Shown piece after piece: positions 1-724 of a DNA stretch of 724 nt. The stretch's first letter is position 1, and each line of letters begins with the position of its first letter. The DNA is from Escherichia coli (GTDB lineage: Bacteria > Pseudomonadota > Gammaproteobacteria > Enterobacterales > Enterobacteriaceae), in assembly GCF_003334815.1 (NCBI RefSeq), contig NZ_QOWO01000120.1; one strand, written 5' to 3'. A program made the position numbers and the translations under genes. The notes under the pieces are model-generated. The model was not told the DNA's origin and did no database searches. It saw only the letters and a list, made by a program, of their open reading frames with translations.

Positions 1-724
1 GTAAGTCACTGTGTGGATTATCATAACGGTAGCGGGTGATATCGCCGTCAGGGGCAGTTTCCTGAATCAGACGGCCCCATTCATCATATTCCCGGCGTAT
101 TTCCAGCCCGTCAGGCCCGGTGGCTGACGTTAACTGGCTGTGGTGGTTATAGTAAAACGCCGATGCCCTGCCATCCGGCGTGGTGATGCGCGTGATGAGG
201 CCCGTCACCACATCCGGACTGTATTCTGTTGTCCTGCCTGCGGCATCCGTCTGTGCCCTGAGCCTGCCCACCGCGTCAAACTGACTCTGCGTGACGCTGC
301 CGTCCGCGTGTTCCTTTTTCACCACCCGCTTCAGCCCGCCTTCACCCTGCGTGTGCAGGACTTCACGGCGGTTCAGGCTGTCGGTGATGGTGATGCGGTC
401 CTTCTCATACTGATACGTGTAACTTAAGCCTGCCGGGTTTAGCTGTTCTGTCACCCGCCCGTCGCTGTCGTAACGGTAACAGATTTCCGGTCGGCCCGTG
501 TGACGGTGCGCCACCATCCGGCCCCGGTATTTATCATCGTAAGTAAAGCTGCGCACCTGTGTATTGCTGCGGTCATACACCGCCGCCAGTTCGCCGCGGG
601 GCGTCCAGCCATAGCGCACCAGCGGCGCGGCAGGTAAATTCTCCGGGTATTCCGGGTCGTGCGTCAGCCACACGGCAGACAGACGGATGCCGTTGTCCCG
701 GCCATATTCGGTGTAACCCGGCAG
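1..724 (-). CDS. rhs: Rhs-family YD-repeat protein (polymorphic toxin core), internal fragment, partial at both 5' and 3' ends; codons run 724..722 down to 4..2, with base 1 belonging to the next incomplete codon
   Basis: Seen in sequence: I reverse-complemented and translated the window by hand; this minus-strand frame has 241 sense codons and no stop. The translation carries repeated YD-repeat signatures: FTYDDKYRGRMV (plus-strand coords ~509-544), CYRYDSDGRVTEQ (~449-478), REYDEWGRLIQETAPDGDITRYRYD (~20-91), FDAVGRLRAQTDAAGRTTEY (~221-280) and YGRDNGIRL (680-706). Established knowledge: this YxYDxxGR[LIV] pattern with ~21-residue spacing and elevated GC defines the Rhs/YD-repeat core, and I recognise the sequence from memory as close to the Escherichia coli Rhs core family. 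The family-level symbol is given because the paralog cannot be resolved; no start or stop codon lies in the window. Confidence 0.9.
   Translation of the reverse strand, partial: MPGYTEYGRDNGIRLSAVWLTHDPEYPENLPAAPLVRYGWTPRGELAAVYDRSNTQVRSFTYDDKYRGRMVAHRHTGRPEICYRYDSDGRVTEQLNPAGLSYTYQYEKDRITITDSLNRREVLHTQGEGGLKRVVKKEHADGSVTQSQFDAVGRLRAQTDAAGRTTEYSPDVVTGLITRITTPDGRASAFYYNHHSQLTSATGPDGLEIRREYDEWGRLIQETAPDGDITRYRYDNPHSDL

Follow-up and report, generated by a model that had tools for sequence, protein, structure and literature searches.

The rhs genes were among the first repeated elements described in Escherichia coli K-12 (1984). Demarcation of the Rhs core by a PxxxxDPxGL motif and the presence of orphan modules have been reported (PMC3150448), as have the relocation of displaced tips to 'dissociated' fragments further downstream (PMC2935791) and the Rhs cage with its aspartyl autocleavage (PMC8636562). 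Here we analyze a 724-nucleotide stretch of E. coli DNA (contig NZ_QOWO01000120.1 of assembly GCF_003334815.1), which at its full length is called the window throughout. The window almost certainly comes from the interior of the conserved core, rich in guanine plus cytosine (GC), of a polymorphic-toxin gene of the Rhs family (clade I) in E. coli; the gene is most probably K-12 rhsC (b0700) or a close relative. The gene, the layout of its locus, and its general mechanism are all published, and the window offers nothing new. An initial annotation, made from the letters alone, had placed any novelty in the flanks, and nothing novel was found inside the window.

Results

The window encodes an internal segment of an Rhs core

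The minus-strand frame whose first codon lies at 724-722 (frame 0) is free of stop codons across the 724 bases, giving 241 codons, and the remaining five frames contain 6-15 stops each. The base composition of the window is 59.9% GC, and upon mononucleotide shuffling at least one of the six frames was open throughout in 39 of 20,000 shuffles (~0.2%, p about 0.002). By itself the open frame is suggestive and does not settle that the coding is of the rhs type; the matches of the translation do so. All 241 residues aligned with positions 285-525 of the 1261-position NCBIfam model NF041261 (RHS_core) with an E value of 1.8e-142 and a score of 476.6 bits. The YD-repeat model TIGR01643 scored 67.2 bits (E = 9e-19) against a cut-off of 15.8, and Pfam PF05593 (RHS_repeat) gave five matches at E ≤ 0.001 plus one weak additional match.

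The nucleotide sequence is identical (724 of 724 bases, 100%) to nucleotides (nt) 829-1552 of rhsC of K-12 MG1655, which encode amino acids (aa) 277-517 of the 1397-residue protein (WP_000015200.1 / NP_415229.1). RhsC codon 277 begins at window position 724 and codon 517 ends at position 2, base 1 being the first base of codon 518, and both the start and the stop codon of the gene lie outside the window. K-12 rhsA and rhsB show 24 mismatches to the window in 724 bases (96.7% identity) and rhsD is 74.5% identical; because all three diverge from the window, among K-12 genes it is specifically rhsC. The full K-12 rhsC product scores 2683.5 bits against RHS_core over model positions 1-1261, the curated equivalog cut-off being 2000. 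When the window was compared by megablast with 5,426 complete E. coli genomes, matches were found in 3,885 of them, the median genome having three matching places, and the best matches were 100% identical and annotated as rhsC.

These results agree with the claim of the initial annotation that the window lies wholly within a minus-strand Rhs core gene. Of the two findings that it had named as contrary to this claim, a lack of Rhs/YD similarity was not seen, the translated window matching the RHS_core and YD models strongly, and no stop codon was found just outside the window in the identical K-12 copy, where the 1397-aa rhsC is intact. The features of the window are collected in Table 1.

Table 1 Coordinates of the core segment and of the individual repeats within the window
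Feature	Position	Strand	Evidence and remarks
Rhs core internal segment, clade I (rhsA/B/C-type)	1..724	-	Open frame, RHS_core, K-12 rhsC identity
YD/RHS repeat PF05593	377..472	-	Pfam, E = 6.4e-6; motif YRYDSDGR at 455-478
YD/RHS repeat PF05593	230..328	-	Pfam, E = 0.001
YD/RHS repeat PF05593	164..280	-	Pfam, E = 8.9e-8; overlaps the adjacent repeats, a common feature of tandem YD arrays
YD/RHS repeat PF05593	107..205	-	Pfam, E = 2.5e-5
YD/RHS repeat PF05593, partial model	20..88	-	Pfam, E = 4e-6; motif YRYDNPHS at 8-31 overlaps its end
Degenerate YD/RHS repeat PF05593	500..601	-	Pfam, E = 0.12, alone not significant

Layout of the rhsC locus in K-12

The architecture of the flanks was taken from the annotated K-12 records that carry the identical window. 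The RhsC core is 1,247 aa long and the window covers about 22-41% of it. To the left of coordinate 1 a further 2,189 nt of core extend to the end of the motif PISNIDPLGL. This core-end motif occupies RhsC aa 1238-1247, at the end of the segment matched by TIGR03696 (Rhs_assc_core; E = 1e-23, aa 1170-1247), and is followed by a 150-aa tip. The GC content drops along the locus: it is 61.3% for the core, 41.3% for the tip, and 31.2% for ybfB. The start codon of ybfB, which encodes 108 aa, shares a single base, the final one, with the stop codon of rhsC. On the 3' side of ybfB lies an orphan module composed of a 3' core fragment (RHS_core positions 908-1261) and a 152-aa tip (the pseudogene ybfO), followed by ybfC, beyond which are the ISAs1/H-repeat transposase remnants ybfQ, ybfL, and ybfD. 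In the opposite direction the rhsC ATG is found 828 nt to the right of coordinate 724, and ybfA and the kdp operon precede the gene. The K-12 gene order is kdpFABC-ybfA-rhsC-ybfB-ybfO-ybfC-ISAs1 remnants-ybgA-phr, and this layout matches the published Rhs architecture.

The K-12 records also allow the predictions made from the window about its surroundings to be judged. The tip had been placed to the left of coordinate 1 and the N-terminus to the right of 724, and both directions are correct. The estimate that 2 kb or more of core remained is borne out by the distance to PISNIDPLGL given above, and the strain-variable tip, small open reading frame (ORF), and possible orphan module that had been anticipated have their counterparts in the 150-aa tip, which is rich in adenine and thymine, in ybfB, and in ybfO/ybfC. 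The window was said to lie in roughly the N-terminal third of the core; it begins there but straddles the end of that third. The extension of 1.5 kb proposed for the right side is enough to reach the 5' end of the gene, whereas the 4 kb proposed for the left side reaches ybfB (2,968 nt) but stops short of where the orphan module ends, at about 5.1 kb.

Predicted role of the YD repeats and the RhsC N-terminus

The solved structures closest to the window translation are Tse5 8cp6 (E = 8e-37, residues 189-422), 7pq5, 7q97, and 8qjb-d, all of them Rhs cage proteins. By homology to such effectors, the roughly seven or eight YD repeats of the window would be beta-hairpin units that, together with the rest of the core, would build a closed beta-shell (a cage) enclosing the C-terminal toxin. 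The core-end domain would serve as both plug and aspartyl autoprotease, autocleavage would free the tip, and delivery would take place on a type VI secretion spike. At the level of DNA the window has a further known role: nearly identical core copies number three or more per genome, and the window, being one of them, is a substrate on which homologous recombination can act, both from one rhs locus to another and between a main gene and its orphan fragments.

The RhsC N-terminus matched DUF6531 (E = 2.6e-18) and gave borderline matches to the Pfam PAAR_motif (E = 0.12 and 2.4). Alignments of residues 2-29 were confined to the last PAAR repeat in 9rce_c (E = 9e-4), 4jiv (0.011), and 4jiw (0.27). 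Canonical PAAR proteins have three such repeats, and the N-terminal segment of RhsC may, to judge from these alignments, represent a shortened PAAR-like element rather than a complete cone. Note that aa 1-47 (L001:8173-8313, where L001 denotes the K-12 locus) contain a literal PAAR (KPAARQGD). The long rhs genes of strain EDL933 have been termed PAAR-containing (PMC7216683). The initial annotation had described the 5' region of such genes as often encoding a PAAR or VgrG-interacting domain. In rhsC this region encodes DUF6531 and only a short PAAR-like segment, and no vgrG or hcp gene adjoins it, so that a link to type VI secretion is at most putative here.

The off-window RhsC tip, YbfB, and YbfC

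From the gene arrangement alone, the RhsC tip (RhsC-CT) is a candidate toxin and YbfB a candidate immunity protein. The tip has 150 residues, 9 of which are Cys. Homologues were found as Rhs C-termini in Escherichia, Shigella, Salmonella, Buttiauxella, and metagenomes, and relatives detected by fold are carried by Rhs proteins of distant bacteria, with 22-45% identity. In 13 homologues of the tip, H30 (in YHQYLCV), C118 (in NCQDW), and eight further Cys residues are invariant.

No Pfam family matched the tip even at E ≤ 10, and NCBIfam searches with the tip, YbfB, and YbfC gave no match beyond the core. A profile of the tip family, when compared with the sequences of the PDB, matched only the Rhs core-end residues carried by the homologues. 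None of these sequence searches assigned a toxin domain to the tip. Foldseek searches with the model of the tip found nothing significant in the PDB, and only weak PPPDE and amidase matches in AFDB50. With modest confidence, modelling assigns the tip a papain-like fold of the permuted type (NlpC/P60-LRAT/PPPDE). The invariant H30 and C118 are candidates for the catalytic pair, His before Cys (H-box / NC motif), of the permuted NlpC/P60 (LRAT / PPPDE / YiiX-like) cysteine hydrolases. Sequence profiles of this superfamily did not recover the tip, the Pfam families LRAT, NLPC_P60, and PPPDE giving no match to it at E ≤ 10.

YbfB (108 aa; L001:12366-12692) contains three long hydrophobic stretches and matches no family, and the first residues of YbfC (189 aa; L001:14240-14809) resemble a signal peptide whose end reads ...GVIADC. 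By these sequence features both look like envelope proteins, which suggests that both tips may act outside the cytoplasm. We tentatively propose, as a possibility that we hold somewhat more doubtful than likely, that RhsC-CT represents a widespread Rhs-borne toxin family having a permuted NlpC/P60-LRAT-like cysteine hydrolase/acyltransferase fold. Its target would be the envelope, either membrane lipid or cell wall, and its inhibitor would be YbfB, a small membrane protein with three segments.

The RhsC tip and ybfB were found in 2,536-2,778 of the 5,426 genomes, at an identity of at least 99% in 2,711; about half of the complete E. coli genomes carry the pair, in nearly invariant form. In E. 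coli EC24 (NZ_CP182191.1) an IS1A element lies within the rhsC tip/ybfB stretch, and the match there is in two pieces spanning 1,556 bp. The window itself matters little, and this off-window pair is the sole thread of interest.

Identical copies of the window and alternative readings

Exact copies of the window are present in roughly 500 genomes, an estimate derived from the first 8 of 60 evenly spaced match rows being 100% identical, and 594 records match at an identity of at least 99%. Several observations weigh against the reading of the window as a piece of rhsC with the tip and mechanism described above. Three of the eight sampled exact matches are annotated only as 'RHS element core protein' and not as rhsC. 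The rhsC locus of strain 300709 carries the K-12 rhsC core with the ybfO tip and an adjoining ybfC, and in strain CFSAN061761 an exact copy is located at the rhsA locus (yibF-rhs-yibA; L003:7173-12567), in a gene disrupted by IS3. As to function, a literature search found no experiment on RhsC-CT or YbfB, and the K-12 rhsC locus has neither vgrG nor hcp nor a gene for an Eag chaperone as a neighbour. Moreover, K-12 is not known to have a type VI secretion system (T6SS), and delivery of RhsC in the K-12 background is therefore doubtful; the literature search found no paper stating explicitly that K-12 lacks such a system. Delivery is the weakest link of the mechanism for RhsC. The rhsA-C genes of EDL933 likewise lie outside vgrG islands (PMC7216683).

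In strain 300709 the RhsC tip and ybfB are absent and the last 152 residues are those of the K-12 orphan tip. The locus (L002:7173-11938) aligns with that of K-12 (L001:8173-14809) in two DNA blocks, with 1,871 bp of K-12 skipped. The arrangement could equally have arisen through recombination of the main core with the core fragment of the orphan module, a process demonstrated experimentally in Salmonella (PMC3967940), or be the state before insertion of the RhsC tip, a reading to which the displacement model is relevant (PMC2935791). The core-end motif of this strain, PVQYIDSMGL, departs from PxxxxDPxGL. The exact window at the rhsA locus of CFSAN061761, where a K-12-type rhsA would differ by 24 bases, suggests gene conversion between rhs loci; the IS3 cut in this gene falls just after the core end. 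Since the identical window is found upstream of different tips, it fixes the core family and not the tip. Exact copies precede at least three different 3' ends, and as a marker the core does not predict the toxin type.

The window could thus come from a different copy, either an rhsC locus with the ybfO tip or an rhsA locus after gene conversion, in which case the tip and immunity gene would differ from RhsC-CT and YbfB. The exact 724-base copies in strains 300709 and CFSAN061761, and the three of eight evenly sampled matches that lack an rhsC annotation, argue for such an origin, which we nevertheless regard as less likely than not: among the matches listed, most exact ones are K-12 derivatives or strains with an annotated rhsC, and the RhsC tip and ybfB are common (2,536-2,778 of 5,426 genomes). 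An origin from a disrupted or truncated rhs pseudogene, or from an orphan core fragment, is far less probable. Although the IS3-cut gene of CFSAN061761 and the IS1 in the tip region of EC24 are examples of disruption, the window has an unbroken frame, and the great majority of exact matches fall within full-length annotated genes. Downstream of rhs genes, orphan core fragments occur frequently, but those seen retain only the 3' core (positions 908-1261 in ybfO), whereas the window corresponds to positions 285-525. Least probable of all, to the point of being hardly credible, is that a separate plus-strand gene or RNA is embedded in the window, such as the 95-codon ORF with a GTG start at 140-427. 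This ORF, of 95 aa, does exist, and a weak sigma-70-like promoter match (9 of 12 positions) lies at 124-153 on the plus strand, just upstream of it. However, PADLOC gave no family for its product, Rfam gave no match on either strand at E ≤ 1, a signal scan of the window found no terminator-like site, and RefSeq has no annotation antisense to rhsC here. Long antisense ORFs are expected in a coding region of 60% GC, and the 140-427 ORF most probably arises as a side effect of the GC-rich coding strand.

A reading of the window as a defence system or as an embedded gene was dropped, PADLOC being null for both the Rhs fragment and the antisense ORF. A search for repeats within the window returned only short two-copy matches of 14-19 nt, which fit chance or the YD periodicity.

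Comparison with known Rhs and YD-repeat systems

As an internal segment of an rhsC core, the window is closest to K-12 RhsC itself (clade I, rhsA/B/C/F subfamily), with which it agrees in frame and position and from which it shows no difference within the window. K-12 RhsA and RhsB are like RhsC in core family, length, and register, in their first 45 residues, which are identical, and in the core-end motif at aa 1238-1247. They differ from RhsC in having other tips and other immunity genes (yibA; yhhH).

Among effectors of known structure, the cage walls of Tse5 (Pseudomonas aeruginosa), Rhs1/Tre23 (Photorhabdus laumondii, 7pq5), RhsA (Pseudomonas protegens, 7q97), and the Salmonella bongori Rhs protein align with the window at E = 8e-37 to 1e-19. 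In Tse5 and RhsA the region that follows the PAAR domain also aligns with the DUF6531 region of RhsC. The solved T6SS Rhs effectors share the conserved core-end domain with RhsC, whereas their tips are unrelated to that of RhsC. Known T6SS components are encoded alongside these effectors or deliver them; in contrast, K-12 rhsC stands without an adjoining vgrG, hcp, or Eag gene. The cocoon of the Tc toxin TcB-TcC (BC) and the teneurin shells follow the same YD-shell principle and have the conserved core-end aspartyl protease region. The similarity of teneurin-like shells to the window is far weaker (E about 3e-11), and Tc toxins and teneurins also differ in delivery, which involves the TcA pore or a eukaryotic membrane protein.
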